From the NCBI GenBank assembly GCA_043817315.1, contig JBDRGY010000001.1:78702-142701 (forward strand): a stretch of DNA of 64,000 nt, in the 5' to 3' direction. The translations under genes were made by a program, and so were the position numbers. This document shows, one piece after another, positions 7,278 through 34,977 of the stretch. The notes under the pieces are model-generated. The model was not told the DNA's origin. It made no database searches and saw only the letters and a program-made list of their open reading frames with translations. Source of the stretch: Patescibacteria group bacterium. Lineage in GTDB: Bacteria > Patescibacteriota > Patescibacteriia > JBDRGY01. The number at the start of each line of letters is the position of its first letter. Position 1 is the stretch's first letter.

Positions 7278-7848
7278 TATGAACAATCAAGACGATATTA
7301 TTTTAGGAGGAGGCGGTCGGGAGCAAAAGGAAATTAATCCTGAAAAGAAAGTAATCCTACCATCGCAAAAAGAGCATCAGCTGGGTGTTAGAGTTGAGGC
7401 TGCTCCAGAAATAGCTACACCGGAACAGAAAGTGGAACAAGAAATCAGCCCGGAGCAAGAAAGGGAATTGGCTAAAGAAGCAGCTAAGCAGGAGGATAAA
7501 GAGAAAATCAGTACTGCCCCAGTACCAACTTCCCCTTCATCAGTTCAGCCAGCCCAACAACAACCCAAGACCGAAATGAGACGCAATATTGAGAAAATCC
7601 TGGCAGAAGATTTGGTGGAGATCTATAATAGTTTAAATGAAGAGGAAAAAAAGGAATTTAAAGCTGAAGGAGAAAGGGTAGCCTCCAAGATTGAGCAGAT
7701 AATGCAGCAAATGAAAATAAAGGCCAAAGAAGTACTAAAGCTGATTCGTGACTGGCTAAAAAAGATCCCAGGTATTAATCGTTTTTTTCTTATTCAAGAA
7801 GCCAAGATAAAAACAGACAGAATCCTGGCTCTAAAAGATAGGCAATAA
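7278..7848 (+). CDS. Hypothetical Glu/Lys-rich protein of 190 aa with a disordered N-terminal half. Its stop overlaps the next start (TAATG). The ORF track extends the gene to a GTG at 7249, which lies inside the promoter.
   Basis: ORF translationally coupled to the ATPase gene. Low-complexity composition rich in E, K, Q and P. No family recognised. Confidence 0.55.
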
Positions 7849-10400
7849 TGAACAGTCTGCCGTCAATTAACACTCCCAGTTTTTCTTGGGACACTATCTT
7901 TAATAATCAGATTTTTGTTATCGTAGCGACTTTAGTAGTCGTTATTTTTGTTCTCTGGTTAATGATATTTACTTTACGTAAAACGATTGCCAGGCAGCGC
8001 CGGCTTTCTAATACCTTTTCCATGGTAACCTTGATGGTTACTGTGCCCAAAGAAAGTCTGGATGAAGACGATGAGCGAAAACCGCTCGAGGAAAAATTGG
8101 CTGTTGCCGAAGCCTTTATGTCCACGGTCGGTGGCATGATCTCTCAAAAGGGGATCAGGGCGTTTCTCTTAGGCCGCTCTGACCACTTTGCTTTTGAGAT
8201 TGTTGCCAACAAAGGATTGATTTCTTTTTATGTCACTGTACCTTGCTATATGCAGCAGTATATGGAACAGCAGATTCAAGCCCAATATCACCGGTCCCAG
8301 ATTGAAGTGGTAGAAGATTACAATATTTTTACCCCACGAGGAGTTATCGAAGCCGCCTACCTCAAGCTGAAAAAGAGATCAATGTTCCCAATTTTAACTT
8401 ATAAAAAGTTAGGATCTGATCCTTTAAATTCCTTAACCAATGTTTTGAGCAAATTTCAGGAAGATGAAGGTGCTGTTCTGCAAATCATGGCCCGGTCTTC
8501 CCATCCGGCTTGGCACAAGGCTGGAGCCAAAGTAGCTACCGAGATGAGCCAGGGGAAAAATGTAAAAGATGCTATGAAATCCAGCAACCCAAGTATTTTA
8601 GGTCAGATTGGCAAGACTGCACTGGCCTCTACCAAGAAGAGTAAAAAAGACGATTACGAATATGATGAACCGAGACGTTTAACTCCCATGGAAGAAGAAA
8701 CGGTAAAGGGTTTGGAAGAAAAAACGGCTAAAGCGGGCTTGGATGTCAACATTAGAATCATAGTCTCTTCACCTGATGGTCAAAGAGCCAAGGCCAATAT
8801 TCGAAACATTGCTGATGCTTTTTCTCAATACAGCGGTTATGAGTATATCAACGCTTTCGTTAAAAAAAGAGTTTGGCGCAAGAGTAAAATTATCAGAGAC
8901 TTCATCTATCGCAATTTCTCTGAGAAGAATAAATTTATATTAAACGCCGAAGAGATAGCTTCCGTTTATCATTTTCCATTGCCCAATACAGAAACACCCA
9001 ATATTCGCTGGTTGGTCGCCAAGAAATCAGCCCCTCCGGTCAACATGCCCCAAGAAGGCTTGATCCTGGGTCGTAATTTCTATCGGGGCCTGGAGACTCA
9101 AATCCGCATTAAAAGAGACGACCGGCGTCGTCATATTTATATCATTGGTAAATCCGGTACTGGAAAATCTGTTTTAATTTCTTCAATGGCTATTCAGGAT
9201 ATTCAGAACGGCGAAGGAGTCTGTGTTGTCGATCCCCATGGTGATTTAATCGAATACATTTTAGCTCACATACCTAAAGAGCGAGCAGAAGACGTGGCCG
9301 TCTTTGCGCCGGCCGATATGGAAAAACCGGTTGGTCTAAATATGTTAGAAGCTGACTCGGTGGAAGATCAGGATTTTGCCATCCAGGAAATGATTGCCAT
9401 TTTCTATAAACTATTCCCGCCGGAGATGATTGGGCCTATGTTCGAACATAATATGAGAAACGTGATGTTGACCCTGATGGCCGACAAAGAAAATCCTGGT
9501 ACTATCGCCGAGATTCCCCGTATGTTTACTGATCCTGCTTTTCAAAAATACAAATTGACTAAAGTAACTGACCCCGTTGTTAGAAATTTTTGGGAGAAAG
9601 AGATGGCTAAAACTACCGATTTTCACAAATCCGAAATGTTGGGTTATCTAATATCGAAAGTAGGCCGCTTTGTCGAAAACGAGATGATGAGGAATATTAT
9701 TGGCCAACCCAAGTCCGGTTTTGACATCAGAGAGATAATGGATAAGCAGAAGATATTACTGGTCAATCTGTCTAAAGGTAAAGTAGGTGAGGTCAATAGC
9801 GACCTTCTGGGCTTGATTATAGTTTCCAAGTTGCAGATGGCTGCCCTCAATCGGGGTGATATTCCCGAGGAAGAACGTAAAGATTTTTATCTCTATATAG
9901 ATGAGTTTCAAAACTATGCTACTGACAGTATTGCCACTATTTTATCCGAGGCCAGAAAGTACCGTCTCAATCTGACCATGGCTCACCAATACATTGGGCA
10001 GTTAGTAAAAAATAATGATACCCAGATCCGCGATGCGGTTTTGGGCACCACTGGTACTATGGTGGCCTTTAAAGTGGGAGTAGACGATGCCGAGGTTATG
10101 GCCAAAGTGTTTGACCCAGTTTTTGACGAGTACGATGTGCTTAATGTTGAAAAGTTTACTGCCTACATTAAGTTACTGGTTGACAACCAGGCCTCTCGCG
10201 CTTTCAACATGCACACCTATCCGCCGGTGCCGGGTAATAAGGAGCTGGCTCATAAGATTAAAGAATTATCACGTTTAAAATATGGCCGACCCAAATCCAA
10301 GGTGCAGGCCGAAATCATGAATCGGTCGCAGTTGGGAGAACCCAGTAAGCCGTCACCATCTTTGGGAACGCAGGATTTAGGTCGGGAACCTAAGGCCTAA
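7848..10400 (+). CDS. VirD4/TraG/TraD-like type-IV coupling-protein-family P-loop ATPase (FtsK-HerA superfamily). It has an N-terminal TM helix and a unique domain of about 350 aa before the ATPase domain.
   Basis: TM helix IFVIVATLVVVIFVLWLMIFTL. Walker A IIGKSGTGKSVLISS, then VVDPHGD, Walker B FYLYIDEFQNY, and the TraG-D C-terminal-like motif LNLTMAHQYIGQL. This is 850 aa, the typical length of a coupling protein. Confidence 0.55.
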   Translation: MNSLPSINTPSFSWDTIFNNQIFVIVATLVVVIFVLWLMIFTLRKTIARQRRLSNTFSMVTLMVTVPKESLDEDDERKPLEEKLAVAEAFMSTVGGMISQKGIRAFLLGRSDHFAFEIVANKGLISFYVTVPCYMQQYMEQQIQAQYHRSQIEVVEDYNIFTPRGVIEAAYLKLKKRSMFPILTYKKLGSDPLNSLTNVLSKFQEDEGAVLQIMARSSHPAWHKAGAKVATEMSQGKNVKDAMKSSNPSILGQIGKTALASTKKSKKDDYEYDEPRRLTPMEEETVKGLEEKTAKAGLDVNIRIIVSSPDGQRAKANIRNIADAFSQYSGYEYINAFVKKRVWRKSKIIRDFIYRNFSEKNKFILNAEEIASVYHFPLPNTETPNIRWLVAKKSAPPVNMPQEGLILGRNFYRGLETQIRIKRDDRRRHIYIIGKSGTGKSVLISSMAIQDIQNGEGVCVVDPHGDLIEYILAHIPKERAEDVAVFAPADMEKPVGLNMLEADSVEDQDFAIQEMIAIFYKLFPPEMIGPMFEHNMRNVMLTLMADKENPGTIAEIPRMFTDPAFQKYKLTKVTDPVVRNFWEKEMAKTTDFHKSEMLGYLISKVGRFVENEMMRNIIGQPKSGFDIREIMDKQKILLVNLSKGKVGEVNSDLLGLIIVSKLQMAALNRGDIPEEERKDFYLYIDEFQNYATDSIATILSEARKYRLNLTMAHQYIGQLVKNNDTQIRDAVLGTTGTMVAFKVGVDDAEVMAKVFDPVFDEYDVLNVEKFTAYIKLLVDNQASRAFNMHTYPPVPGNKELAHKIKELSRLKYGRPKSKVQAEIMNRSQLGEPSKPSPSLGTQDLGREPKA

Positions 10401-13205: not shown

Positions 13206-13946
13206 ATGAAAATTTCTCCAAAAATTACTTTTCCTATTATTGGATTGATCTGCCTAATTAGTGTCGGATCAGTTTGGGCTTTATCTGACAAAAAAGTTGA
13301 AGCACAGCCAGAGGAAGTCGATGGTATGAGAGCCAATCGCTTAACTATTCAGCCCACTCAAACTATTAATGTTTTAGCTAATGTTCGATACAGCAAGGAT
13401 TTGGAGTCGGTTAATTACACGGTCGGTGAATTATTAAACACTGAGTTTGTCGTCTATAATCAATCAAAACAAAAAATGAGTTTTAAAGTGATCCGAGAAG
13501 TTCTGCCCGATGAGGAAATCACTGAATCCAGAAACGCTGAGTTAAAGTATTTTTCCATGGAACACTACCAAGTACCCTACCTCGAATACACAGTAGATTT
13601 AGCAGGAGAAACAGCTACTGCTATGGAAGTAAAGTCCAAGTATAATAGTTTGCCAGTTAATGGAAAGTTGACATTACCCCGGATAGATATTATTGATATT
13701 GACTCCGGAAGAGTAATTGCTAATTCAAGTCCCACCATAATAAAAATCAATTGTCTGGAAGATAAAACTTGTAACATTAAAAACGGCGAGAACTTCCGCA
13801 ACTGCCCGGCTGATTGTCCTTCTGGATCCGATGATAGTTATTGTGATATGGAAAAAGACGGTAAATGCGATCCCAATTGTTTAATGGAATTAGATAAAGA
13901 TTGTAAGAAAGGAGAGGGGATAACCACTATCCCCAAAATAGAATAG
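13206..13946 (+). CDS. Secreted hypothetical protein of 246 aa with a Cys-rich C-terminus (CDPNCLMELDKDCKKGEGITTIPKIE).
   Basis: Signal peptide MKISPKITFPIIGLICLISVGSVWA. An 8-Cys tail. The gene immediately precedes its larger partner gene. Confidence 0.6.
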   Translation: MKISPKITFPIIGLICLISVGSVWALSDKKVEAQPEEVDGMRANRLTIQPTQTINVLANVRYSKDLESVNYTVGELLNTEFVVYNQSKQKMSFKVIREVLPDEEITESRNAELKYFSMEHYQVPYLEYTVDLAGETATAMEVKSKYNSLPVNGKLTLPRIDIIDIDSGRVIANSSPTIIKINCLEDKTCNIKNGENFRNCPADCPSGSDDSYCDMEKDGKCDPNCLMELDKDCKKGEGITTIPKIE

Positions 13947-13958
13947 AAAAAGGATTTT

Positions 13959-15908
13959 ATGCCCCATCGTCATCTAAACATTACCTTAATCTTTTTAGCC
14001 GCTACCTGGCTGATGGTAGCCAGCTTTTATTTTTGGGAGGATTGGCAGATCGATCCCGCCGCAGGACAAGAAATATTATCCATTACTGGTTATTCTCCTA
14101 CCATTCCGGTCTTAACTCCTGGTTCTACCGGTTTCACTTTGCAGGTCAACACCTCACTGGGGTCAGATTGTAAACATGGTGACCAAGGCCAAACCTATGA
14201 GCAAATGTCTAATCAGTTCAATGGCGACGGTACCTTAATACATACGGCAGAAATTTCCAACTTAGTTAGCGGTCCCACTTACCATTATTATGTCCGCTGC
14301 CAAACCGGAGCTCAGACAACTGAGGAACTGGATCTGAGCTATCGAGTTATACCGGCCATTGATTATGATTTTCCCAGATTAACCAATACCTTTTACGGGG
14401 ATATTAATAATGATAATTTAGATGAATTATCAAGATATGATTTATTAGCGATCACCACTTTTTATCAGAAGGCAGCCCAGCAGAATAAGATTAAAACCAT
14501 TAGGGAATATAATTCGGAAATTACTATTTTGCCGTATCTATTGATTAGAGATACTCACAAAGACCTAACTGATCCCAGTCTGATTGATTATCCGTTAAAG
14601 GAACAAATTTTTGAAAACAATTGGTTCTTATACCAACCTTATACCACGATTGTCGGTGATATTGATGAATACGCTACTTCTATTCAAGTGACTGATATCA
14701 ACAAATTGGATCTTGATTTGGAAGGAGCGGATATAAATAATTATATAGCCGTAGAAGATGAATACATGGAGGTTACTGATATTGTTGGTGATACCTTGAC
14801 TGTGGTACGCGGTCATCAATCAGATGCAGTATCGCATACTGACGGGGATCAGATCAGGGCCCATATTATTCTTTGGCTGGGTTTACATCCTGCCCTTAAC
14901 CTGAGTACTGATTGGAATTTGGCTGTGCCAGAATTTGTGGAGACCACTTTGATCCCCTCCGGACTTTGGGATGGGGTTTATTACGATGCGGTTGCAGAAA
15001 ATCTGTACAGCCGTGGTTTTGATACAGATATTGATAATGATGGAATAGCTGACGATGACGAAACTAAGTTACTGCATAAAGCTGGCATTGGCACGCTTTT
15101 TAATCAAACCAGAAATATCAGCTCTGATATTTATATCGTGGGCAATGGCTATTACACTTTCTATCAATACGGTAATGGTATAGAATATGAAACTTTTACA
15201 GGGTTGGATGGATCTAACTGGTCAGCCCATATGATAGGATATTTAGAATGGCAAGAAAGTGGTTTAGACCCTCATATCGATATAATAAATATGAAATGTA
15301 ACAATAGCGGCAATGATACTTTGTGCCAGCAGGAATACCAAAAAATGCGTTATGGTCTTACCTCAACACTAATCGGAGATGGCTTCTATCTTTTTGACGG
15401 AGGGGGTACTGGACATAATAAACTGTATTGGTTTGATGAATATTCTGTTGATTTGGCTACGGGCATTCCGACCACTCCTACTGCGGAAAATGATTTCGTG
15501 GGAAAGGGTTATCTGGGTCAGCCAAGCGGTGACTACTCGATTTTAGCTAATGGAGTTTACCGCCGTAATTTTGCCAATGGTGTAGTCTTAGTCAATCCAA
15601 CTGAATCAGAACAAGATGTTGAATTGGGAGAGACCCTGCGGCGGATTCAAGGAGTTCAAGATACCAATGTTAATATTGGGGGGGAGGTGTCAATCGTTAC
15701 TATAGCTTCTGAAGACGGCATAGTTCTACTCAGTCAGATTTGTGATGAAGATTGGCAGTGTACTGAATGGTCTGAGTGTATTGACAGTCAACGATCAAGG
15801 ACTTGTACTGATCAAAACGAATGTGGTACCGTAGAAAACCAACCAGTAGGAACTCAAGCGTGTGATTCAAATTCTCCAGCAGATATTTACGATTTATTCT
15901 TAGATTAA
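13959..15908 (+). CDS. Surface protein of 649 aa. It has an N-terminal TM anchor, an FN3-like domain, a putative TIM-barrel glycoside-hydrolase-like domain and the C-terminal 4-Cys module. It is a paralog of the protein at 16036-19158.
   Basis: TM helix LIFLAATWLMVASFYFW. Segments TYHYYVRCQTG, DYDFPRL...RYDLLAI and YWFDEYSVDLATG...VYRRNFANGVVLVNP align with the 16036 protein. C-terminal module DWQCTEWSECIDSQRSRTCTDQNECGT. Confidence 0.65.
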   Translation: MPHRHLNITLIFLAATWLMVASFYFWEDWQIDPAAGQEILSITGYSPTIPVLTPGSTGFTLQVNTSLGSDCKHGDQGQTYEQMSNQFNGDGTLIHTAEISNLVSGPTYHYYVRCQTGAQTTEELDLSYRVIPAIDYDFPRLTNTFYGDINNDNLDELSRYDLLAITTFYQKAAQQNKIKTIREYNSEITILPYLLIRDTHKDLTDPSLIDYPLKEQIFENNWFLYQPYTTIVGDIDEYATSIQVTDINKLDLDLEGADINNYIAVEDEYMEVTDIVGDTLTVVRGHQSDAVSHTDGDQIRAHIILWLGLHPALNLSTDWNLAVPEFVETTLIPSGLWDGVYYDAVAENLYSRGFDTDIDNDGIADDDETKLLHKAGIGTLFNQTRNISSDIYIVGNGYYTFYQYGNGIEYETFTGLDGSNWSAHMIGYLEWQESGLDPHIDIINMKCNNSGNDTLCQQEYQKMRYGLTSTLIGDGFYLFDGGGTGHNKLYWFDEYSVDLATGIPTTPTAENDFVGKGYLGQPSGDYSILANGVYRRNFANGVVLVNPTESEQDVELGETLRRIQGVQDTNVNIGGEVSIVTIASEDGIVLLSQICDEDWQCTEWSECIDSQRSRTCTDQNECGTVENQPVGTQACDSNSPADIYDLFLD

Positions 15909-15909
15909 T

Positions 15910-16035
15910 ATGGCTAATTTTCCTAGAAAGTATGTCTATCCAATCGTGACCGGCGTCAATTGTATAACCGAGCTGGATAAAGATTGTAAACAGGGAGAGG
16001 GAATAACCAATGTTCCCGATATCCCTAAAACCTAA
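15910..16035 (+). pseudogene. Chimeric remnant ORF of 41 aa (MANFPRKYVYPIVTGVNCITELDKDCKQGEGITNVPDIPKT). Its first ~13 residues resemble the signal-peptide start of the 19161/13206 genes and its last ~25 residues match the C-terminus of the 13206 protein.
   Basis: The ORF exactly fills the gap between the 13959 and 16036 genes. MxNFPRKxxYPxV matches MINFPRKIIYPVV of the 19161 protein. CITELDKDCKQGEGITNVPDIPK matches CLMELDKDCKKGEGITTIPKIE at the end of the 13206 protein. The whole middle of a 13206-like gene is absent. Confidence 0.55.
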
Positions 16036-19000
16036 ATGAAAATAACCCACAAAAATCTGGATCGGGTTTTAATCTTTATGGGTATCTTCTGGTTGTTTAC
16101 CGGCTATTTTTTTGTGTCTAGTGAATTTAGAGCGATGGCAGCCGGAAATACCTATTATGTAGCCGAAACTGGATGTTCAGACTCTGGTCCGGGAACAGCC
16201 GGTGAACCTTGGTGTGCTATCGCCAAAGCAGCATCTACTTTGCAAGCAGGAGATACTGTCTTGGTTCAAGATGGAACTTATATTGTCTCTCAGATCAATC
16301 CAACATATTCAGGAATAAGTGGCAGCCCAATAACATTTAAAGCCAACGGGGACAATGTGATACTTGATGGTTCAGGAACCCATGCTTTCTGGCTGCGTAA
16401 TCGAAATTATGTGACTCTTGATGGTTTCGAATTTATAAATTCAGAGGCTTGCGTTATGGTTTATCCCTCTTCTTCTACCATGACAGGGATAACATTAAAG
16501 AACTTTTATTCAAATGCAGGATGCAGAATTGGGATTTATACCTCAGATTTTGAATATGGATTAGAAGACTATCTAGTAGAAAATATTCACTTTATAAGTG
16601 CAGGTGGTATTGGCATGAATGGTGCCAATGGTGGAATATTAAGAAATTGCCTGTTAGATTGTACTGCAACTGCAGGTTCAGGAGGATGCAATACAGGGAT
16701 AAACAATGGAAACAACATTTTAATAGAAAACAATCAATTTCTTTTTGTAAATGAACATACAATCAACATAGGACACAGTGATCCAGCAAAGGGATGTACA
16801 AATGTTGTTGTCAGAAACAATCTATTTTACAGAATTCATGATGTAAAAATTGACGCTGGAAATGATAATGTAGATGTTTTACACAACACTTTTGTCCTAG
16901 AAAAAGATGCAGGCTGGAGCTCGATAAATAATCCGGAAGTCTATCCTTCAACGGATATAACTGTTAAGGATAATCTATTTGTCCAAACCGGTTGGACGCA
17001 TATCCCCCTTAGTAGATTATCCGAAAGCGATCATAATTATTGGGTTAGTGGCTGGCCAGATTCGAGCAGTGCCGTTATATACGGCAATCTTTTACTGGCA
17101 GATTGGCAAGCAGCCAGTGGAAATATCCATGATCTAAATTCCCATCAAGATCTAGGTTTGGATAGATATAACATTTTTGTTGATCCGGATAATTATGATT
17201 TTACTCCCCAGGCTAATTCTTGGCTTTGCCAAGATGGTAATGAAGGTTCTGATGGAGAAACAATTGGAGCCTTGTCTTGTGCCGGCGGGGGTGCGGCAGC
17301 AGTTTGCTCTGACGGAGAGATTACCGAAACTTGCGATTGTGGTGGCACTGACTATGATACCGGTTATTGTTGCGCCGGAGTTTATCAAGATAGTGATTGT
17401 AGTGTTGACGATATATCAATAATCCACTCACCGGAATATGTAGCTCATAGCACGGAAACTGCAAGTATCAACCTAACAGTTACTACCAATTACCTATCGA
17501 CCTGTAAATACGACACCAACAGTGGGACTGACTATGCCAGTATGCCCAATACCATGACTGGTTCGGACACTTCTCATACAGCTACCCTGTCCGGGCTGGA
17601 ATCGGGTACTACATATAATTACTACGTTCGTTGCAGTACTTCTTTTGGAACCACAGAAAATGATCACGAAATTGTCTATCGTGTTTTACCGGAATACGAT
17701 GATCAATATCCCAGACTTGGTTTGGTCCTACACGGTTGCATTATTGAAGATGCAGCAACAGTAGAGCAGGCGGCCCGTTACGATTTGTTAGTCTTGCATA
17801 AATATCACACCGAATACGAAGGCCGGTATTGTAATCCCGATCGCTTGGAAGAAATCAGAGCTTTAAGTCCCAGAACCAAAATGTTTGTCCATCAGCCTCA
17901 GAGCTATGCCTATCATCCTTTGGAAACCTGGCCAGGGGATGGATCTTATCCGGCGGCTGGTCATATCCTTTATGATTGGTTAGACGGAGTTGTCCATTAT
18001 GGTGATCCGGAAGACAGATGGACCTTGACTGATACAGCTGGTGACACCATTTGGGAATTATCCAATACTTCTTGGGATGTTGCAGTAATGGACATTACCC
18101 CTTACTGCCCGGTAGCTGATGGAACGGTGGACTACAATTACAATAGCAACAACGTTGATTATACTAAGGAAACCTTGATTGACCCGGGTATTTGGGATGG
18201 AGTGTTTTGGGATAGCTTATACAATAATATTAACTGGATGAACAGCAGTATAGAGCCGGATATCGACATTGATCACGATGGAGTGGCCGATACTAATGAT
18301 TTTTCCACCGCTCAATGGACAGCTGGCATCAATGATTTTTACAGCAAGGCCAGAAATTACATGGGAGAAGATATTTGGTTTATCGGTAATGGAAATCATG
18401 ATCAGTATCAGTACGGTAACGGAGAAATGATCGAAGGTTGGTGGAGCAATAGGACTTGGCGAGAAAGAATAGATGCTTTTGATAATTGGAACAGCAATGG
18501 CCAAGAGCCGGATTTCAATATGGTGGTCGGTCCTTATAATTCCGAGGAAATGCCAGCGACCCACAATTATCGGGTACCGCGTTGGGCATTTACTTTTTCT
18601 TTATTAACCGGTTCCTATTACGAAATGTTTGATGATGAAGTTGGTTATACAGAATTCTACTGGCTAGACGAATACGCAGTTGATTTAACCAGCGGGGAAG
18701 CGGTAATACCCACTGAAGCCAATGATTGGTTAGGAAAAAATTATCTGGGAGAGGCCGAAGATGATGCTTATGAGCTGGATGTTAATCCTACTTCTTATCC
18801 GCAAGGTGTCTGGAGAAGAGATTTTGCAAATGGGATAGTTTTAGCTAATCCGAATAGTCCATCAGTAACCATTGATTTAGGCGGTGAATACAGAAAGATT
18901 TTAGGAACGCAGGATCCGATAAATGATGGTTCAACTGTTTCCCAGATAACCTTAACTGGTAGTAACGGCATCATTCTCCTTAAACCGGCTTGCGAAGAAG

Positions 19001-19158
19001 ATTGGCAATGTACTGATTGGTCTGATTGTGAAGATAGCCAGCAAACCAGGACTTGTACGGATTTGAATGTCTGTGGTACCGAGATTGACAAACCGGAAGA
19101 AACTAGATATTGTGATTCGATATCCCCAGAAGATATTGATGATTTAATAGCCGACTAA
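16036..19158 (+). CDS. Giant surface protein of 1040 aa. It has a TM anchor, an N-terminal right-handed beta-helix (DUF1565/pectate-lyase-fold-like), an FN3-like domain, a TIM-barrel hydrolase-like domain and the C-terminal 4-Cys module.
   Basis: AAGNTYYVAETG...GDTVLVQDGTY beta-helix entry motif. Repeats such as NNQFLF and NNLFYR. The shared region TYNYYVRCST...YWLDEYAVDLTSG aligns with the 13959 protein. Ends EDWQCTDWSDCEDSQQTRTCTDLNVCGT...IDDLIAD. Confidence 0.7.
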   Translation: MKITHKNLDRVLIFMGIFWLFTGYFFVSSEFRAMAAGNTYYVAETGCSDSGPGTAGEPWCAIAKAASTLQAGDTVLVQDGTYIVSQINPTYSGISGSPITFKANGDNVILDGSGTHAFWLRNRNYVTLDGFEFINSEACVMVYPSSSTMTGITLKNFYSNAGCRIGIYTSDFEYGLEDYLVENIHFISAGGIGMNGANGGILRNCLLDCTATAGSGGCNTGINNGNNILIENNQFLFVNEHTINIGHSDPAKGCTNVVVRNNLFYRIHDVKIDAGNDNVDVLHNTFVLEKDAGWSSINNPEVYPSTDITVKDNLFVQTGWTHIPLSRLSESDHNYWVSGWPDSSSAVIYGNLLLADWQAASGNIHDLNSHQDLGLDRYNIFVDPDNYDFTPQANSWLCQDGNEGSDGETIGALSCAGGGAAAVCSDGEITETCDCGGTDYDTGYCCAGVYQDSDCSVDDISIIHSPEYVAHSTETASINLTVTTNYLSTCKYDTNSGTDYASMPNTMTGSDTSHTATLSGLESGTTYNYYVRCSTSFGTTENDHEIVYRVLPEYDDQYPRLGLVLHGCIIEDAATVEQAARYDLLVLHKYHTEYEGRYCNPDRLEEIRALSPRTKMFVHQPQSYAYHPLETWPGDGSYPAAGHILYDWLDGVVHYGDPEDRWTLTDTAGDTIWELSNTSWDVAVMDITPYCPVADGTVDYNYNSNNVDYTKETLIDPGIWDGVFWDSLYNNINWMNSSIEPDIDIDHDGVADTNDFSTAQWTAGINDFYSKARNYMGEDIWFIGNGNHDQYQYGNGEMIEGWWSNRTWRERIDAFDNWNSNGQEPDFNMVVGPYNSEEMPATHNYRVPRWAFTFSLLTGSYYEMFDDEVGYTEFYWLDEYAVDLTSGEAVIPTEANDWLGKNYLGEAEDDAYELDVNPTSYPQGVWRRDFANGIVLANPNSPSVTIDLGGEYRKILGTQDPINDGSTVSQITLTGSNGIILLKPACEEDWQCTDWSDCEDSQQTRTCTDLNVCGTEIDKPEETRYCDSISPEDIDDLIAD

Positions 19159-19160
19159 AT

Positions 19161-22148
19161 ATGATCAATTTTCCTCGGAAAATTATTTATCCAGTAGTGG
19201 CCGTTATCGTTTTAATGTTAAGCGGAGTAACGGTCTGGGCCATGACTGAAGATTGGGTATCCTGGCCCATGCAGTGGGACGAGTCAGCTGATAGTGTAGC
19301 TAGTGCTGCCTTTTTGAATGATTACGATATTGATGCCCGAGGGTTTGTTGAGGTTAATCCAGAGACGGGAGACTTTGAGTTAGGAGATGGTACTACTTTA
19401 CGCTTTTGGGGCAGTCAAGTCTGGACTGATGCCACCACGCCGACAACGACTATTGCCGATGGGGTGGCTCCCCATCTCAGAAAACACGGATTTAATATCA
19501 TGAGGATAGGTATCAATACGGAACATATTGACACTCAAGATGAATGGGAAAGATTTACTTATTTTTTAAAGCAATTAAAAGATGAAGGAATTTATGTTGC
19601 TCTTCAGGTAATGGCCGGAATCAGTTTTGATACCCTGTTAGATGAAACTGCCAGGCAAACCAGATTAGAATGGATTAAAGACGATTTATTAATGCGAGAT
19701 AATCCTTATGACCAACCTTTCTATAACAATCCCCAGATTGCCATGTTGGAGATTACTAATGAACTAAGTTTTCAAAGATTTTATCACTATCATCGCCTCA
19801 ACTATAATACTGAAGGCTGTCATCCCACCCAGGGACAAAATGCCTATCGTTATCCGGTGTCTCAATCTACTAGCAACTATCTTGACCAGGAATTTTCCCA
19901 GTGGTTGTTAAATAAATACGGAGACAGAGATACCTTAGAGGCCGCTTGGTTGGATTCACCGGCGACAGATCCGGCCGGGGCCAATTCGATTGTCAACGGA
20001 GGGTTTGAAAGCAGTATGGATAATTGGACTCTGACCACAGGAGATGGTTGTGAGGCCAGTTCTCAAATAATCAGTGATGCAGTTGAGGGAAGCCAAGCCA
20101 TCCAGATTGATGTAACTCAAGCCGGAGAAACCTACTGGAAAACAATTAGTTTGAGTTATAACGGGCCGATGGCTCTGACTGAAGGAAACTGGTACACTGT
20201 TGGTTTTTGGGCCAAGTCTGATGCGCCCAACCCGGGCGAGTATTGTGGCACCTATCCTTACCAATTTACTGTTATGGTTAGAGGTTTGCCGGGGATTGTC
20301 TATGGTGATAATAATATGCCCTACATCGATGCCATAGACGATGGAAATTCTAGCGTTGACGATGACTGGAAATATTATCAAGTTTCCTTTTTGGCAGACG
20401 AAACAGTCACCAGCCACGGATTTAGACTGACCGGTTTTGGCTACAAAACGGGAACGATTTGGTTTGATGACATTACCATTAAAGAAAATGGAGTTTATGG
20501 ACTAAGGAGCTGGGAGGACCCGGATCCGGCTTCAGAAAATGTATGGCGTTTGCAGTTGTTAGATCAATTTTCTTTTTCTGCTCCCCGCTATCGGGATACA
20601 GTTGAGTTTTACGTGGACAAAGAAAGAGAGTTTACCGGAGCAGTCACTGATTATTTAACAAATAATATTTTTACCGGTGATAGACCATTGCCGCCGATCA
20701 GCGGCAGTCAACCGGGGGGAACTTTGGGCGGCTATGCTGATACCACTCTCGGTCGTATCGATATTCATTCTTACTATAATAGTGTAGTAAGTGTTGAAGA
20801 AGACTCCTATGTAAGAGAAATAGGCAGACCGTGGTCAATAATATCTACTGCCAGGCAGGATCCTCCTTGGGATAATTTAATTGCTCCCCAGGCCAAGCAC
20901 CAGGTGGCCGGCATGCCCCTGACGGTTTCCGAACACAATGTTGGTTATCCTCACCCGTACCGTTATGAGAGCCCCTTATTGACAGCTGCCTATTCGGCTT
21001 ATCAGGGTTGGGACGGGATTTATTGGTTTAATTATCACTCTGACGGAGATGAAACCTGGGAAGATGTTAATGCTCTTTTTGGCGGGGCACACGGAGTTCA
21101 TAATATTGAGTCCAATTCCCAAACCATGGTCCAAATGATCCAGACAGCTATTATGTATCGGCGGGGAGATATCCAACAGGCTGATCGGTTTATTGACGTA
21201 TCTTTAACTAAAAACGAAACTCTAGATGGCCACAAGATAGGTGACGAGGGACGTAGCCGGGACAAATGGGGTTTGGGTGGTTATCCTTATGATTTATCAG
21301 ATGATTTGGATTGGCGCTATCTCATGCTTTATGGTGTTCGGATTTCATCATATGAAGCAGTAGGGCCCAGGCTATTTGAGGATTTGAAAACTGAATATGG
21401 ATTACCTGATATTAGAACTTGGAATGCTGACGAGTTGAAATTTGTTTCCGATACAGGAGAGCTAACTTGGGACGTCTCCGATAACGGAGGTGAGTTCGAA
21501 GATCATTTCCTGATTAATACCCCCAAAACTCAATCTGTGGCCGGTCGGTTAATGTACGGTGTTATCCCCAGAACCCTAAGCACAGATAATATGGAGGTAA
21601 CGGCTTCGGATCCGGAATACGGAGCAGTTACTCTTACCAGTATGGACAATAATGATATTGCTCAATCAGAGTCTCTGTTGATCTCCGGATTGAGACAGGC
21701 AGCTAATCAAGGCTCCACTTGGGATGCTGATGAAGAAATTTTGACCATGATTCAAAACGATACCATGCTGGAACCGGTCAATGCCCAGATTACCCTTGTC
21801 ATGGCTGCCAATTCCGAAAGTCTGACTGTTACTCCTTTAGATAAAACGGGACAAGTGATAGATTCCTCTTTACCAGTTAATAGAACGGCTTATGGAGACA
21901 GAGTAGAATACCAGTTCGATATTTCCGGGCCGATCTACGATACAGTTTGGTACAGTATTGCCCAAACTTTTACCGAAGAGTGTGTTGAGAACTGGCAGTG
22001 CACCGAGTGGTCAGAATGTGTAACAGGACAACAAACCAGAACCTGCACGGATATAAACGAATGCGGAACAGAGATAGATAAACCTTCCGAAGTACAAGAA
22101 TGCGATTCGGTGTCCCCGGAAACCATTGACGATTTAGTGGCCAATTAA
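19161..22148 (+). CDS. Giant surface protein of 995 aa with a signal/TM anchor, a GH5-like (clan GH-A) TIM-barrel glycoside hydrolase, a CBM4/9-like module and the C-terminal 4-Cys module.
   Basis: HGFNIMRIGIN and MLEITNELSF, with NEL in the position of the GH5 acid/base NEP. IVNGGFESSMDNWTL at the start of the CBM. Ends NWQCTEWSECVTGQQTRTCTDINECGT...IDDLVAN. Confidence 0.6.
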   Translation: MINFPRKIIYPVVAVIVLMLSGVTVWAMTEDWVSWPMQWDESADSVASAAFLNDYDIDARGFVEVNPETGDFELGDGTTLRFWGSQVWTDATTPTTTIADGVAPHLRKHGFNIMRIGINTEHIDTQDEWERFTYFLKQLKDEGIYVALQVMAGISFDTLLDETARQTRLEWIKDDLLMRDNPYDQPFYNNPQIAMLEITNELSFQRFYHYHRLNYNTEGCHPTQGQNAYRYPVSQSTSNYLDQEFSQWLLNKYGDRDTLEAAWLDSPATDPAGANSIVNGGFESSMDNWTLTTGDGCEASSQIISDAVEGSQAIQIDVTQAGETYWKTISLSYNGPMALTEGNWYTVGFWAKSDAPNPGEYCGTYPYQFTVMVRGLPGIVYGDNNMPYIDAIDDGNSSVDDDWKYYQVSFLADETVTSHGFRLTGFGYKTGTIWFDDITIKENGVYGLRSWEDPDPASENVWRLQLLDQFSFSAPRYRDTVEFYVDKEREFTGAVTDYLTNNIFTGDRPLPPISGSQPGGTLGGYADTTLGRIDIHSYYNSVVSVEEDSYVREIGRPWSIISTARQDPPWDNLIAPQAKHQVAGMPLTVSEHNVGYPHPYRYESPLLTAAYSAYQGWDGIYWFNYHSDGDETWEDVNALFGGAHGVHNIESNSQTMVQMIQTAIMYRRGDIQQADRFIDVSLTKNETLDGHKIGDEGRSRDKWGLGGYPYDLSDDLDWRYLMLYGVRISSYEAVGPRLFEDLKTEYGLPDIRTWNADELKFVSDTGELTWDVSDNGGEFEDHFLINTPKTQSVAGRLMYGVIPRTLSTDNMEVTASDPEYGAVTLTSMDNNDIAQSESLLISGLRQAANQGSTWDADEEILTMIQNDTMLEPVNAQITLVMAANSESLTVTPLDKTGQVIDSSLPVNRTAYGDRVEYQFDISGPIYDTVWYSIAQTFTEECVENWQCTEWSECVTGQQTRTCTDINECGTEIDKPSEVQECDSVSPETIDDLVAN

Positions 22149-22149
22149 T

Positions 22150-23856
22150 ATGAAATTAATCACCAGAGAAAAAACTACCATAGAAACCAGGTTGGGCCTG
22201 TATATCGGGGTTACGGCTACGGTTTGTGTTTCCATATTAGTCTCTACTATCTTGACAACAACGACACCATTTCTAGCTCCGCTTTTAAGTTTGCCCTCGG
22301 TGGTAGCTCTTGATTCATCCAACTCTATGAATTTAACCTGGACCGCTCCGGGTGACAATGGAAATAGCGGAACGGCTGCTGCCTATGATATTCGTTATTC
22401 CACTTCACTTATTAAAGAAGTCAACTGGGATCAGGCCGAACAGGTCGATAATGAACCAACTCCTGCAGTGGCAGGCAGTACTGAAACTTATCAATTAACT
22501 GGTCTTACCCCCAATACTACTTATTATGTGGGGATTAAAACAGTTGACGAAGCGGGAAACTGGTCAGGTATTTCTAATGTCGCTTCCAAAACCACTGATT
22601 GTTTTGAGGCCTGGTCCTGTGCTGAATGGGAAGATTGTCTTGATGGCCAACAGGCAAGAATTTGTACCGATTTAAACAGTTGTGGTACTGAGGAGGAAAA
22701 GCCAGTCGAAACTCAAAGCTGTACTGATCCAGATGAACTCTGTGAAGAAAACTGGGAGTGTACTGCCTGGTCTGCCTGTGAAGACAATGAGCAAGTAAGA
22801 ACTTGTGCCGATTCCAATGCCTGCGGTACAGAAGAAAATAAACCGGGAGCCAGTCGTTATTGTGATGTAGTTGGTGGTCCAGTAGGGGATCCGGAAGTGT
22901 TGAACCGCGAAACCTTAATCGTGACCGGTGTCAATAGCGGCGGTGGCCCTCAAGTAAAAACCTTTGATCAGGACGGAAACTTGCGTGGCCAGTTTTGGGC
23001 CTTTGATCAAGGATTCACTGGAGGGATAAATGTCTATGCTGAAGATTTAGGCCGAGATAATGTAGCAGAAATTATTGTTGGTGCCGGACCGGGTATGTTA
23101 CCGATAATTCGTATCTTTGATTCCCATGGTGGCTTACTAGGTAGTTTTCAAGCTTATGATGATAATTTTCAAGGTGGAGTGTCTGTAGCAGCTGGCGATC
23201 TGGACGAAGATGGTATTGCCGAAATTGTAACCATACCTCAATCAGGCGGGGGACCCAACGTTCGTATCTTTGGCTACCGTGACGGTCAGTATGTTCCGGT
23301 GATTGAAAGCTTCTTCGCTTATGACGTTCGCTTTCGTGGTGGAGTATCTTTAGAAGTTTGTGATTTGGATCGTGATGATAAGGACGAGATAATCACTATT
23401 CCTAAGAGTAACGGCGGTCCTCACTTGAGAATTTTTGGTTACCGTGACGGTGTCTACCGACCGGTCATCTTGGGTTTAATGACTCATCATCCTAACTTCC
23501 GTGGTGGACTCAATCTGGGCTGTGGTGACCTGGAAGGTAATGGCTACGAACAAATCATAGCGGCCCCAGCTTCCTTGGGTGGACCCCACATCAGAACTTT
23601 TGGACGCAACCGTTTAGGTTCTATCAGTATCTTAAGCCCGGGCTTTATGGCCTTTCATCCGGAGTTTAGGGGTGGTGTCTCTTTGACCACCGGAGATTTC
23701 GATTACAATTATCAAAATGAGATAGTGGTCTCGGTCTCTAGCGGAGACAGGGCCCTGATTAGAATATTTTATCAGGACGGCACTTTAATGAAAGAATTTT
23801 TGGCTTACCCAGAAGACTTTCATTTTGGAGTAAATGTATCTGCCGCTAAGTTTTAA
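22150..23856 (+). CDS. Surface protein of 568 aa with a TM anchor, an FN3 domain, two 4-Cys modules and a seven-blade FG-GAP beta-propeller. It ends in the tail GVNVSAAKF.
   Basis: FN3 segment LTWTAPGDNGNSGTAAAYDIRYS...TYYVGIKTVDEAGNWS. Modules CFEAWSCAEWEDC...CTDLNSCGT and CEENWECTAWSAC...CADSNACGT. FG-GAP repeats FRGGVSVAAGDLDEDGIAEIV. Confidence 0.7.
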   Translation: MKLITREKTTIETRLGLYIGVTATVCVSILVSTILTTTTPFLAPLLSLPSVVALDSSNSMNLTWTAPGDNGNSGTAAAYDIRYSTSLIKEVNWDQAEQVDNEPTPAVAGSTETYQLTGLTPNTTYYVGIKTVDEAGNWSGISNVASKTTDCFEAWSCAEWEDCLDGQQARICTDLNSCGTEEEKPVETQSCTDPDELCEENWECTAWSACEDNEQVRTCADSNACGTEENKPGASRYCDVVGGPVGDPEVLNRETLIVTGVNSGGGPQVKTFDQDGNLRGQFWAFDQGFTGGINVYAEDLGRDNVAEIIVGAGPGMLPIIRIFDSHGGLLGSFQAYDDNFQGGVSVAAGDLDEDGIAEIVTIPQSGGGPNVRIFGYRDGQYVPVIESFFAYDVRFRGGVSLEVCDLDRDDKDEIITIPKSNGGPHLRIFGYRDGVYRPVILGLMTHHPNFRGGLNLGCGDLEGNGYEQIIAAPASLGGPHIRTFGRNRLGSISILSPGFMAFHPEFRGGVSLTTGDFDYNYQNEIVVSVSSGDRALIRIFYQDGTLMKEFLAYPEDFHFGVNVSAAKF

Positions 23857-26800: not shown

Positions 26801-28232
26801 AATGTCTTCATATATATTTAATCTGGGAGATGACGGAATTTTTGGGACAGACGATGATTTGGGCGAGATTACCATTGACCGAATAAGCCTTGAGTCTGAA
26901 GATAATTATATACCTGTTGACTATAACATCGAAATATTTTCCGACAACCAATGGTCAGTAATTCTTGAAGTGGAAGGAAATAGTGATCCTCAAATATTGC
27001 ACTATTTACCTGAAATAGTTACTTTTAGTAAGGTTCGTTTCAATTTTACCGATACATATGATACGGAACCAGATCATGAAGAACTTAGAATTTATGACAT
27101 TGAATTACTTAATTCTGAGACCGGTAAACTTTATAGTGACCACGGCTATGTCAGTGCTTCTGCTGGAAATAACCCAAACTACATACATGAATCTTACGGC
27201 ACTGCTTTTTGGCAGGTTATTAATTCTGATCCGTTCTGGTTGGAAGTGCAATTTCGTGATATTGCAAATATTAACGATGAAATTACTCAAATTAACAGCG
27301 AGATCTACTTGAGTTTAAATGATATATTTGCAAATGTAGTTGTTGGAGAGAATCTTTTTGATAATCCGAATATCTACACTTATGACCTAGTATCCGGTAG
27401 CCTCAATCAAATCACTGCTAGGCCGATTAACCAACAGAGAATAAAAGTATGGGGAAACAAAATTGTTTATACAGGAGAAGGAGATTTAGAAGGAATATTT
27501 TTAACTGAATATTTTAGTTGTGATAATTCTAATCCGGCAGTTTGTGGTGAGGCATTTGGACCAGATTGCCAGGAGGTTGATCAGTTAATGTGCTGTGAGG
27601 ATGATACAGATGAAAATTATTTAAGTAGAGATTGTGCTGACTCATCAATCTTTGCTGACAGTTGCAGTGACGAAGAAAATGATAATGCTTGTTGCGACGA
27701 CTCAAAAGACTGTGTTTATAAAGGAATATGTTATACCAGAAACCGGGCAAATGATTTTCAGGAAAATGCCTGGGAGGGAACCAATGGTGCAGGAACGGTT
27801 GGATACTATAAATGTTTGAACACTCCTGGAATGATTTTTGATTGCGACCATGATCCATATGTTTGTGAGGAATACAATTGGGCCTGTAACGTTGATGAAA
27901 CAAGACCTTATGGAAGATCCGCCGGTTGGGCTTTTGAAGGCGAGGATCATACCTTTGGAGGTTACGGAGATTCCTGGGGAAGGGGAATTGGTGTTTGGGG
28001 TAGCTATGATCAAGGACCAAGCTCAGTAATTAATCATGAATTTGAAGAATGTTGTGGAGATGATGTTGGAGAATATTTAATTGGCAATATATGTTGTGAT
28101 TCACCAAACGATAGGATAGATAACAGCGGCAATTGTGTACCCCGGGGTAAGCCAAAAAGAATCCAGGAAATGAGTCTCCGTAATAATACATATTCGCAGC
28201 TTGGTATTAATGTTACCGCTGCCAAGTTTTAA
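23862..28232 (+). CDS. Giant surface protein of 1456 aa. It has a TM anchor, a peptidase C25 (gingipain-like, clan CD) domain, six or more tandem repeats of about 45 aa (YGNKIVW...GxDGxFGTxDD), a Cys-rich region and the tail GINVTAAKF.
   Basis: The FFVHHGHGWPYGW His block and the LPVVFSMSCSTAKID Cys block are spaced as in clan-CD peptidases. Repeats seen directly: YDNKLVW, YGNKIVW (twice), FGNKIVW, RDNKILW and YGKKILM. C-terminal region with CCDD, CCED and CCGDD. Confidence 0.55.
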   Translation: MSGKYMTKIQTKNKIKLSIKILMAISASALVLSAGFAIFRFQTIKQSGITSGEYIFETKITDLSRKTVTDPEGNNYIFIQSPESSYLNEAGKPKVPVQNYKVEIPKDAKNLKIEVVNSIDEQERIDAHYYPAEELVQKSIDENVEYIDEEFYIDNNFYDEYQEIYPKNPVVIGQTGKMREVNFVEILFYPLQYKPSDKTLVTNRKLTAKLTYTSENGKETISLPSSFKSIGKGILNHEEEVDAPATSRLGAVIYPTDLASSSNVANYLIITADLFYDNIPDNDDPIEQLVEHRSEISNYDVAVVQLSDIVASYGASIPIHPDLIDTDDDLDLKIKNFIKYAYENWNSGQPDLEYILMVGDAAPETEEFFLPMHLSTIESYGERILTDHWYICINDDQASPQIDDMDVIGDIILGRFSVQTETDLSTVVNKTINYELNPPPDNDWGNRTLLTSGFEEGDGGLPIIRDEILIPNGLEANEVYADDYTDYQLAINDILANINYGHSFFVHHGHGWPYGWQIGDVYSITTDDIGNLSNDNRLPVVFSMSCSTAKIDSDDPSLAETFVNGIEGSIAFFGATRIADSSGFSLAIYTMQQIFEEGEYRLGASILKAKSFSNSGLVYNLFGDPALDLSQSILSSDKPDFRTTLEGFDYSGENVTFFATIYNKGLTAGENVKAELFIGHPELGGTVIDDSTTFHTIPALSNLPIEITIPLQEGWDHGYSTELYLVIDSQNEIEELSEHNNISNQLAFFLNFLPNYYIGGGYGPSIYDNKLVWTENHDGIFSSINMFDLGNDGKYGTADDSGVIQITEDNRNSYHPSIYGNKIVWYGDTNDGQLGISLYNLGQDGLFGTSDDSGVITIAQGGDKKYPKIFGNKIVWQKADSYDYLYIFDLGNDGVYGTSDDRGPSRISSFPLDYSDSFSFRDNKILWSSLNYPDDMIEDVFLYDLGDDGIFGTNDDIKDVQITNNNMNASKPNLYGKKILMSSYIFNLGDDGIFGTDDDLGEITIDRISLESEDNYIPVDYNIEIFSDNQWSVILEVEGNSDPQILHYLPEIVTFSKVRFNFTDTYDTEPDHEELRIYDIELLNSETGKLYSDHGYVSASAGNNPNYIHESYGTAFWQVINSDPFWLEVQFRDIANINDEITQINSEIYLSLNDIFANVVVGENLFDNPNIYTYDLVSGSLNQITARPINQQRIKVWGNKIVYTGEGDLEGIFLTEYFSCDNSNPAVCGEAFGPDCQEVDQLMCCEDDTDENYLSRDCADSSIFADSCSDEENDNACCDDSKDCVYKGICYTRNRANDFQENAWEGTNGAGTVGYYKCLNTPGMIFDCDHDPYVCEEYNWACNVDETRPYGRSAGWAFEGEDHTFGGYGDSWGRGIGVWGSYDQGPSSVINHEFEECCGDDVGEYLIGNICCDSPNDRIDNSGNCVPRGKPKRIQEMSLRNNTYSQLGINVTAAKF

Positions 28233-28243
28233 TTAAATGAAAT

Positions 28244-28279
28244 AAACAGGCCAATGTATTGACAAAAGCCTGTTTTTTT
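28244..28279 (+). terminator. Intrinsic terminator after the 23862 gene: AAACAGGC-loop(16 nt)-GCCTGTTT followed by TTTTTTT.
   Basis: 8-bp GC-containing stem plus a 7-T tract directly downstream of the stop at 28232. The loop is long and contains a -35 box. Confidence 0.45.
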
Positions 28280-28287
28280 GATATAAT
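28259..28287 (+). promoter_or_regulatory. Perfect-consensus sigma70 promoter TTGACA-17-TATAAT for the second giant-gene operon (28317-41422). It is embedded in the upstream terminator.
   Basis: ttgacaaaagcctgtttttttgatataat, with -35 at 28259-28264 and -10 at 28282-28287. The ATG is at 28317. Confidence 0.6.
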
Positions 28288-28316
28288 AAGGGTGTTCTCT
28301 ACTCTTAAACATAGCA

Positions 28317-31300: not shown

Positions 31301-31847
31301 TGATTATAACGGCTATAATCCCAATTCAGGAGATGTTATCAGATGGTGCAAGGATTTCAACGTAATCGAAGGCCAGGGTTGCAGTCCCTGGAGTTATTAT
31401 TCTTCATTAAGCGAATTCTATGGTGACACCGGGTTTGAGCAGCACGGGAAGACCTACAATTATAATGTTTTTGAAAATGCTAATGTTCCTCAGGGCACCT
31501 GGACGTATACGCCAGGCGAAAAAGATTTAACTCTGGATAATTCTGTTAATCCCAATCCCATAGACCAGGGATTGGTTTTGCCCAACATCAATGAAGATTT
31601 CTCCGGCAGTGCTCCGGATCTGGGAGCCTACGAATCTGGTCAGGACCTTCCTCAACTCGGACCGCGAGCAGACGAAGATTGTACGGAAAACTGGCAGTGC
31701 GCTGACTGGTCCGAGTGTTTAGAGGGTCAGCAAACCAGAGAATGTGTCGATACAAACAATTGTGGTACTTACGTCAATCAACCTGATTTGACCAGGGATT
31801 GTGATTCCACCCCGCCGCTCTCCGTCAGTAATCTAACAGCAATTTAA
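28317..31847 (+). CDS. Giant surface protein of 1176 aa. It has a TM anchor, an N-terminal beta-helix domain, one MopE-like DGDGYG Cys repeat, an FN3-like segment, a second beta-helix region and the C-terminal 4-Cys module.
   Basis: AAGNTYYVKTDGSNSNSGISWNQAW...GDTLLVADGDYYE. CTDSDGDGYGDPASSACEYSELDCDDGNGNINPGQSEICDDEIDNNCD. Later repeats NNEISN, ENRITN, KNAIYN and HNTLAG. Ends NWQCADWSECLEGQQTRECVDTNNCGT...SVSNLTAI. Confidence 0.7.
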   Translation: MIKRSLNYTLIILAILWTGVAIFYFTDNIAVQAAGNTYYVKTDGSNSNSGISWNQAWASIEYGMNHISGGDTLLVADGDYYEADSSHDWGIGNGTPSGPSPDQHTIIKADGDSVHVYNSDQHGFYLISSPKQNITIDGFNIHNDNGVCIFFNSSSSRNITIKNNNCTSVGEVMRGSISFADYTGTESRNLLIENNQIRNGSIGIASGSTDCQVLNNTIIQDYPDQTTYGISIGGTWPDYLTEDILVSGNTIINIRGSSGHSASVSRARNVTFSYNTWYFPVEAIIFWPDPLVENIYVDHNTIVDVRSVTFTLPYHASGHTGIGDNIRITNNLIATSQDCEYQGGAAFPLENFHEDYNYYYSPQTVVIDHEACRAVNSGQRYCPTIADWQEATELAGHPLGINSVDDNSGGTKYDIFEDPENYDFTPKADSWICNPDNYGSDGEPIGAWPCEGGSPPPQCTDSDGDGYGDPASSACEYSELDCDDGNGNINPGQSEICDDEIDNNCDTKIDCIDQECANAEPCVNSETSAVTSSDFYADEPTLKSLGFRWYVEGDEDNDAQVQVQYKRSVDSQYKQALEMKRINNDACGYHTEMWTTGNLFAGSVLNLEPGTSYDVRFTMSDPDGVSGDIVKNATVSTRSEPPRHQGNNTIDVYPGDSLLTAAQNAQPGDVILLHEGVHDYSSGGTMNLGSVLSGKQTSEENPIVIRGVDKDTVIVNGPHGSSSANCVQSLIRFINLGSSDYIHLEDFTIRNACVAVIAENAKNLVVRNMNFLDVWGGVWGRVNWYGPNNPWQGDDENWFIVDNVIIGKTNPWFPRSSAYGNNGGVRVYGKGHVVAYNTISNFWDGITLLNDYDSDIPDSFRQDPGQRSVDFHNNEISNCMDDGIETDYGFQNIRVFENRITNAHAGITAQPVFGGPVYIFKNAIYNTNGVSGFKFHNNPSGLEIFHNTLAGHWYWGSDWGWKNVRMYNNLIFGDENSGGPKVRTGSPPSDTRTKIDYNGYNPNSGDVIRWCKDFNVIEGQGCSPWSYYSSLSEFYGDTGFEQHGKTYNYNVFENANVPQGTWTYTPGEKDLTLDNSVNPNPIDQGLVLPNINEDFSGSAPDLGAYESGQDLPQLGPRADEDCTENWQCADWSECLEGQQTRECVDTNNCGTYVNQPDLTRDCDSTPPLSVSNLTAI

Positions 31848-31849
31848 AT

Positions 31850-34975: not shown

Positions 34976-34977
34976 AT

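Follow-up and report, generated by a model that had tools for sequence, protein, structure and literature searches.

A chimeric 41-codon reading frame joins pieces of two gene types in a recombining gene cluster of a Patescibacteria genome

The short reading frame at positions 15910..16035 (+ strand, ATG to TAA, 41 amino acids, MANFPRKYVYPIVTGVNCITELDKDCKQGEGITNVPDIPKT) is a chimera of two neighbouring gene types. Its first 16 codons (the head, 15910..15957, + strand) are homologous to the signal-peptide start of the gene that begins at 19161, and its codons 17-41 with the stop (the tail, 15958..16035, + strand) are homologous to the last 25 residues, in the Cys-rich C-terminal module, of the family to which the small gene at 13206 belongs. 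The fusion point is precise and lies between codons 16 and 17 (15957/15958). The history that we favour, with a probability of about 0.55, is an old duplication of a small-gene plus big-gene pair, a long-lived second small gene, and a later in-frame event that fused the last 25 codons of this gene to a 19161-type junction cassette, by which we mean the end of a Cys-rich module, a stop, 1-2 nt, an ATG and a leader. The frame would then be what remains of a second 13206-type gene that once stood before gene 16036 as 13206 stands before 13959.

The window analysed here is a stretch of 64,000 nucleotides from a Patescibacteria metagenome-assembled genome (MAG; locus tags ABIB97_006xx), the bacterial origin of which is confirmed by dnaX at 42721. 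Its + strand from 7249 to 28232 is a tightly packed operon with gaps of -1 to 15 nt, mostly 0-5 nt. The chimeric frame wholly takes up the gap between genes 13959 and 16036: its ATG lies 1 nt past the stop of 13959 (TAA-T-ATG) and its TAA is followed immediately, with 0 nt between, by the start codon of 16036 (TAA-ATG). An ORF with intact start and stop is thus present, as had been proposed, across the 126-nt gap between these paralogous genes, and NCBI lists it as a hypothetical protein (MFH1597560.1 / ABIB97_00625). An antisense ORF at 15730-16050 (106 aa) is the opposite strand of clearly coding sequence. At the head of this surface-protein operon lies a VirD4/TraG-like type IV secretion coupling ATPase (7848-10400), and a clear operon boundary is found between genes 23862 and 28317, where positions 28233-28316 hold a hairpin and T-run followed by TTGACA and TATAAT.

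The small gene (13206..13946, + strand) encodes 246 amino acids with a signal peptide, a beta-sandwich and a Cys-rich tail. In its AlphaFold model (pLDDT 86.7) a signal helix is followed by a beta-sandwich (residues 58-182), and the Cys-rich tail is ordered to about residue 240; the fold matches of the model are generic Ig-, cohesin- or CBM-like sandwiches. Pfam has no match for this small-gene family. An exhaustive HMMER search with 13206 returned 602 relatives, all uncharacterised; the nearest are 41-46% identical and, where placeable, belong to DPANN archaea (Nanoarchaeota, Woesearchaeota), with archaeal ribosomal genes around one of them, P0028. That a bacterial gene has its closest relatives in DPANN archaea may reflect cross-domain transfer among episymbiont lineages.

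In big gene 1 (13959..15908, + strand) as in big gene 2 (16036..19158, + strand, 1040 aa), a GHL15 (PF14885) putative glycoside hydrolase domain is followed by a Cys-rich C-terminal module of 42-55 residues, a module that also ends the proteins of 28317, 31850 and 34978. Gene 19161 (from 19161, + strand, 995 aa) has a CBM_4_9 domain. Over a length of 628 residues, the 13959 and 16036 proteins share 33% identity (E 6e-86, compared with 2e-43 for the best protein from elsewhere). Their paralogy, named in the original prediction, holds only for amino acids 464-1040 of 16036 and for a weakly similar leader; amino acids 1-417 of 16036 form instead an N-terminal beta-helix of about 420 residues that is common to 28317, 31850 and 34978. 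Gene 13959 itself (13959-14090) looks like a 16036-type protein that lost this beta-helix of ~420 residues by another in-frame deletion: its leader is kept up to an 'AAG' motif, which is the point at which the beta-helix starts in 16036, 28317, 31850 and 34978. The leader of 13959 is nearer to that of 28317 (28317-28440) than to that of 16036.

At a threshold of 90% identity, every protein of this locus is a singleton. When 13206, 13959 and the 41-mer served as queries in word-based protein searches, the only matches were to themselves or had at most 37% identity, the latter value being that of the closest homolog of 13959 from outside. No relative turned up among 185,579 species genomes scanned with 13959, nor was the 13206 protein on record in an exact look-up on contigs. 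In the collections searched, no close relative and hence no intact second small gene was seen.

A six-frame tblastn search of the whole window, with the 41-mer as query, gave exactly two significant non-self matches, the next best having an E value of 0.09. Amino acids 17-38 match 13875..13940 at the end of 13206 with 16/22 identities (E 3e-9), in agreement with the claim that the C-terminus resembles the last residues of that protein, and amino acids 1-13 match 19161..19199 with 9/13 identities (E 1e-3). In a shuffled-sequence control, the C-terminal 25 amino acids scored 96 against 13206 (shuffles 25.4 +/- 4.7) and the N-terminal 16 amino acids scored 56 against 19161 (shuffles 22.6 +/- 3.3), and in neither case did any of 5000 shuffles reach the observed score. 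It might be argued that these similarities arose by chance or from amino-acid composition, given the shortness of the two matches (13 and 22 aa) and the wide occurrence of the tail motif in the 13206 family. Besides the shuffling results and the window-wide E values, however, the matches run start-to-start and end-to-end with the neighbouring genes, and both are extended by collinear flanking DNA. We therefore regard the probability of a chance likeness as negligible.

At the nucleotide level, the head and its counterpart, the first 16 codons of 19161 (19161..19208, + strand), share 32 of 48 nt in register, a count unequalled anywhere else in the window (nt identity 0.67, amino-acid identity 0.56). 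Against the leader of 13206 the corresponding values are 0.44 and 0.27, and the score of 21 (shuffles 14.5 +/- 3.2) was reached by 257 of 5000 shuffles (p about 0.05). Thus, of the N-terminal likeness previously claimed to both genes, that to 19161 is strong and that to 13206 is marginal. The leaders of 13206 and 19161 are mutually related (score 46 versus 21 +/- 4.3 for shuffled sequences), and together with that of the remnant they make up a set of three related leaders whose comparison is unrooted. The original prediction also described the frame as a start-plus-end fusion of one gene, and this description is not supported: with a head nearest to 19161 and a 13206-type tail, the frame appears to fuse two gene types.

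With the head ends a longer collinear block, which starts at ~15741 in the Cys-rich module of 13959 and continues through the stop, the spacer and the ATG into the 16 codons. The Cys-rich C-terminal module of 13959 with its stop and 1-nt spacer (15741..15909, + strand) and the head are together collinear with 18991-19208, which comprises the end of 16036, its stop, a 2-nt spacer and the start of 19161. The alignment of the 13959/remnant junction with the 16036/19161 junction has one 1-nt indel, located in the spacer, and the similarity ends abruptly after 15957 (family D12; 71% identity over 182 nt, spacing 3250). Third-position identity between 13959 and 16036 rises from about 0.35 in the gene bodies to 0.52-0.64 at about 15740, where the Cys-rich module starts, which suggests an earlier exchange of the junction-cassette kind.

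The counterpart of the tail is the last 73 nt of 13206 (13874-13946). When 13206-13946 is aligned with 15910-16035, the tail proves homologous, as expected, with 77% nucleotide identity between 15957-16022 and 13874-13939 (family D19). The tail consensus of the 13206 family is CDPDCLTELDxDCKxGEG...IPxIPK, usually followed in homologs elsewhere by 30-60 further residues, and the remnant agrees with this consensus over its last 25 residues, although it is a fragment rather than a member of the family. It retains two Cys, ELDKDC, GEG and IPxIPK, as well as consensus residues that are missing from 13206, namely the T in TELD, and VPDIPK. Against archaeal homologs the tail scores 105, 96 and 95, and the tail of the intact 13206 gene scores 102, 91 and 91 against the same proteins. 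In both genes of the present locus the stop comes shortly after the IPK motif, 2 codons later in 13206 and 1 codon later in the remnant.

The similarity of the tails continues into the big genes. Positions 13874-14043 (copy 1) and 15957-16126 (copy 2) align without gaps at a constant offset of 2083 nt, from the small-gene tail through to the big-gene leader (16036-16126 on the + strand, collinear with 13953-14043). In the spacer and leader part of this alignment 42 of 94 positions agree, a count that none of 599 control offsets equalled (highest 39). Aligned in this register, the stop of 13206 precedes that of the remnant by 2 codons, and the ATG of 13959 follows that of 16036 by 2 codons. At the 13206/13959 junction the stop is separated from the ATG by a 12-nt spacer, TAGAAAAAGGATTTTATG, so the supposition that TAAATG is the original spacing, shared with that junction, does not hold literally. 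The absence of any indel in the register indicates that the 12-nt spacer came from point changes. The gapless offset, the common early stop and the fact that 13959 and 16036 are mutual best relatives uphold the proposed duplication of a small-gene plus big-gene pair. We considered whether a pairing of the small gene with a GHL15 gene is conserved elsewhere and rejected this, because the archaeal homolog P0028 adjoins unrelated genes; the pair is thus local to this genome.

The two copies are head to tail (13874-15957 and 15957-19208) and meet at 15957 without filler. Microhomology at this junction was dropped as uninformative, since the TTAATG common to 19161 and 13206 is 6 nt off the breakpoint and 15957 itself shares 1-2 nt.

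This geometry could also be produced by a one-step tandem duplication, in which a single illegitimate join linked codon 16 of the 19161 ancestor to codon 222 of the 13206 ancestor. The duplicated segment would have comprised the small-gene tail, the big gene and 48 nt of 19161, and the 41-codon ORF would be the duplication join point, as old as the split between 13959 and 16036. Tandem-duplication join-point chimeras have been described for Salmonella and E. coli duplications and among chimeric young genes, and the present frame resembles them in lying between head-to-tail copies and in fusing the 5' end of the right-border gene to the 3' end of the left-border gene. The exact meeting of the copies at 15957 with no more than 1-2 nt in common, the collinearity of the head and the upstream Cys-rich module, stop and spacer with the 16036/19161 junction, and the position of the parent genes at the outer borders, in the order predicted for head-to-tail copies, all fit such an event, which moreover suffices by itself and so requires one event fewer than a pair duplication followed by a deletion.

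The age of the flanking paralogs nevertheless speaks against a single step. Classical duplication join points are young and unstable, whereas the bodies of 13959 and 16036 are synonymously saturated (identical codons at 0.44 of same-amino-acid positions, versus 0.39 at saturation), for which a later deletion is the better fit. With proteins only 33% identical, a neutral scar of 126 nt of the same age should be unrecognisable. In neutral simulations with 0.35-0.5 substitutions per site, start, frame and stop were all kept in about 3-8% of cases. A one-step duplication further leads one to expect a uniform age of both copies and a decayed junction; the tail is instead undecayed relative to the family consensus and as consensus-like as that of a working gene.

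Pairwise GY94 estimates of omega are 0.12 for the tail and 0.19 for head and tail together, in tests on 37 codons that were chosen for similarity, which makes them no more than suggestive. For these 37 similarity-picked codons, omega = 1 is rejected (2dlnL 12.8) and omega = 0.5, the minimum expected for a remnant that has drifted neutrally ever since the split, is disfavoured (2dlnL 4.4). An undecayed tail between saturated gene bodies means that a one-step duplication would need long purifying selection on a fragment that lacks its domain context, and we consider this explanation unlikely.

Codon identity might seem to offer a more direct date for the tail. Identical codons at same-amino-acid positions amount to 0.66 in the Cys-rich module and 0.71 in the remnant, compared with the 0.44 of the gene bodies, and we considered whether this excess makes the remnant tail younger than the bodies. 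This was rejected, because the third positions of the tail agree with those of 13206 at 13/22 sites and those of 13206 agree equally well (13/22) with those of P0027, a homolog from another organism. As the tail is in this respect no closer to 13206 than P0027 is, the split between tail and 13206 must be old, and the high third-position identity is attributable to codon bias on conserved residues. Overall, the nucleotide identity of the tail is 50/66 to 13206 and 44-45/66 to two homologs from other organisms.

Because the tail is as consensus-like as that of the intact gene, either the second small gene stayed functional long after the duplication or the fragment itself is constrained. The consensus scores, the omega estimates and the neutral simulations all agree in direction, and are suggestive of a working full-length gene until fairly recently, or of a fragment under selection. 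The claimed order of events, with truncation after duplication, is in this sense borne out indirectly, through the family consensus that the tail has kept despite synonymous saturation.

The history that we favour, an old pair duplication followed by a much later fusion, would accordingly consist of three steps. The first, which the alignments display in outline, would be an old local duplication that gave the order small1-big1-small2-big2. During most of the time since then, small2 would have been a working full-length gene. Finally, a later in-frame recombination or deletion would have reduced small2 to its last 25 codons and placed these directly behind the 16 leading codons taken from a 19161-type junction cassette. 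The head could have come from a 19161-type leader that small2 already carried, from a 19161-like gene that once lay between 13959 and small2, or from a conversion tract that ran on from the Cys-rich module into small2. The deletion of ~600 nt put forward in the original prediction depends on this choice, since about 0.6 kb would have been lost only if the lost small gene already had a 19161-type leader.

A second pair of junctions in the window shows what such cassettes can do. A perfect direct repeat of 111 nt (31756-31866 = 34884-34994) occurs at the 28317/31850 and 31850/34978 junctions. It runs from the end of the Cys-rich module over the stop and a 2-nt spacer into the next gene, of which it takes in the ATG and the first 5 codons, although the proteins of the gene bodies around it are only 43-50% identical. 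This looks like a very recent gene conversion at a junction cassette. A perfect repeat of this length between diverged genes indicates that junction cassettes recombine in this locus.

Repeated modules of this kind could in principle have misled the assembly, and the source is a MAG, so that the chimera might be a mis-join. We judge this highly improbable. No repeat common to both sides of 15957 is present that could mislead an assembler, the neighbouring modules are only 60-76% identical, and the flanks are diverged paralogs rather than copies of one sequence. In addition, the reading frames and the tight stop-start spacing are intact on either side.

Whether the frame has a present role is a separate matter. 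Its signal peptide is without a hydrophobic core, the beta-sandwich is missing altogether, and three quarters of the Cys-rich module are likewise absent. Direct reading shows MANFPRKYVYPIVTGV followed by the polar NCITELDKD, and the 19161 core VVAVIVLMLSGVTVWA is absent. With these three parts gone, an activity like that of the parent proteins is very unlikely. A functional micro-protein, maintained in its amino-acid sequence whatever its origin, would account for the low omega, the retention of the two Cys and of the conserved motifs of the tail, the intact start and stop, and the NCBI gene call. A recent truncation accounts equally well for the low omega, however, and among 5.8 billion proteins there is no homolog of the 41-mer as such. 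With ~9 residues left of the 19161-type hydrophobic leader, export is unlikely, and the Cys pair would then be cytoplasmic and without its parental disulfide. Judging from the AlphaFold model of 13206, the tail residues are the end of a 64-residue ordered Cys-rich module, the rest of which is missing along with the beta-sandwich. For these reasons, a selected micro-protein appears very unlikely.

An RNA element, such as a leader or attenuator, was also considered and rejected: Rfam gave no match over the ORF at E <= 1, and folding of the ORF RNA is unremarkable, with no unusual stability found (z-score -1.8).

Another possible role is suggested by the way in which genes are spaced on this strand. 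Between 7000 and 60400, most co-directional + strand genes are 0-5 nt apart, with no SD-like motif within 25 nt of the start, and their typical junctions read TAA(N0-2)ATG. Most operon genes, 15910, 16036 and 19161 among them, are not preceded by an SD-like motif. In consensus scans, none of GGAG, GAGG, AGGA or AAGG was found within 25 nt upstream of 16036, and no promoter-like site was found on the + strand at 15900-16035. The frame may thus stay open for mechanical reasons, if ribosomes that terminate on 13959 are handed to 16036 by termination-reinitiation. In E. coli and Haloferax, a gap of about 20 nt is enough to suppress reinitiation almost entirely (PMC10666635). By starting 1 nt past the 13959 stop and ending on the 16036 ATG, the frame would make possible a hand-over of ribosomes that an untranslated gap of 127 nt could not provide.

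The stop-start distances of 0-2 nt on both sides and the lack of SD-like motifs before 15910 and 16036 are like those of termination-reinitiation coupled pairs (Huber et al. 2019, PMC6728339; 2023, PMC10666635), but such pairs consist of two real genes, mostly with a 4- or 1-nt overlap, whereas here the middle ORF is a putative relay only. We offer tentatively, as a doubtful reading, that the remnant was co-opted as a relay ORF and that selection has kept its 41 codons open so that ribosomes reach the 1040-aa gene 16036; its sequence may have been partly conserved for this purpose. If the fusion is young, however, an open frame is to be expected by chance, since neutral simulations with 0.05-0.1 substitutions per site left the frame intact with a probability of 0.42-0.64. 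Were the relay real, a dead gene fragment could still be useful in operons without ribosome-binding sites, and gene scars in CPR genomes could persist as translational connectors.

Whatever its present role, the frame is a known kind of object, ordinary though tidy: a remnant of a gene, or the scar of a fusion, within an array of paralogs that recombine. In bacterial tandem paralog arrays, deletions leave truncated or fused pseudogene fragments. Like such remnants, the frame is a short coding piece homologous to an intact neighbour and has kept its original position and orientation beside a duplicated partner; it differs from them in that frame, start and stop are intact, that two gene types are involved, and that its tail is as conserved as that of a working member. 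The frame offers a readable record of how a cluster of large modular surface proteins in a Patescibacteria genome grows and shrinks, through pair duplication, in-frame deletions and recombination at junction cassettes. Annotators should take it as a warning too: ABIB97_00625 consists of two fused gene fragments and represents no independent gene family.

The neighbourhood of the frame has a similar texture. A module of ~42 residues with the pattern C.E.W.C..WS.C....Q.R.C.D.N.CGT occurs in at least 14 copies, C-terminal or internal, in eight large neighbouring genes between 15741 and 40408 (Cys-rich module examples are at 15741-15830, 18991-19080, 21981-22085, 22600-22845, 31680-31784, 34682-34897, 37777-37881 and 38426-40408). 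Shuffled modules make a mosaic of the entire region from 10 to 41 kb. The adjacent and otherwise unrelated proteins of 22150 and 23862 end in a near-identical heptapeptide, NV(S/T)AAKF (23836-23856 and 28212-28232), which could be a common C-terminal sorting or anchoring signal.
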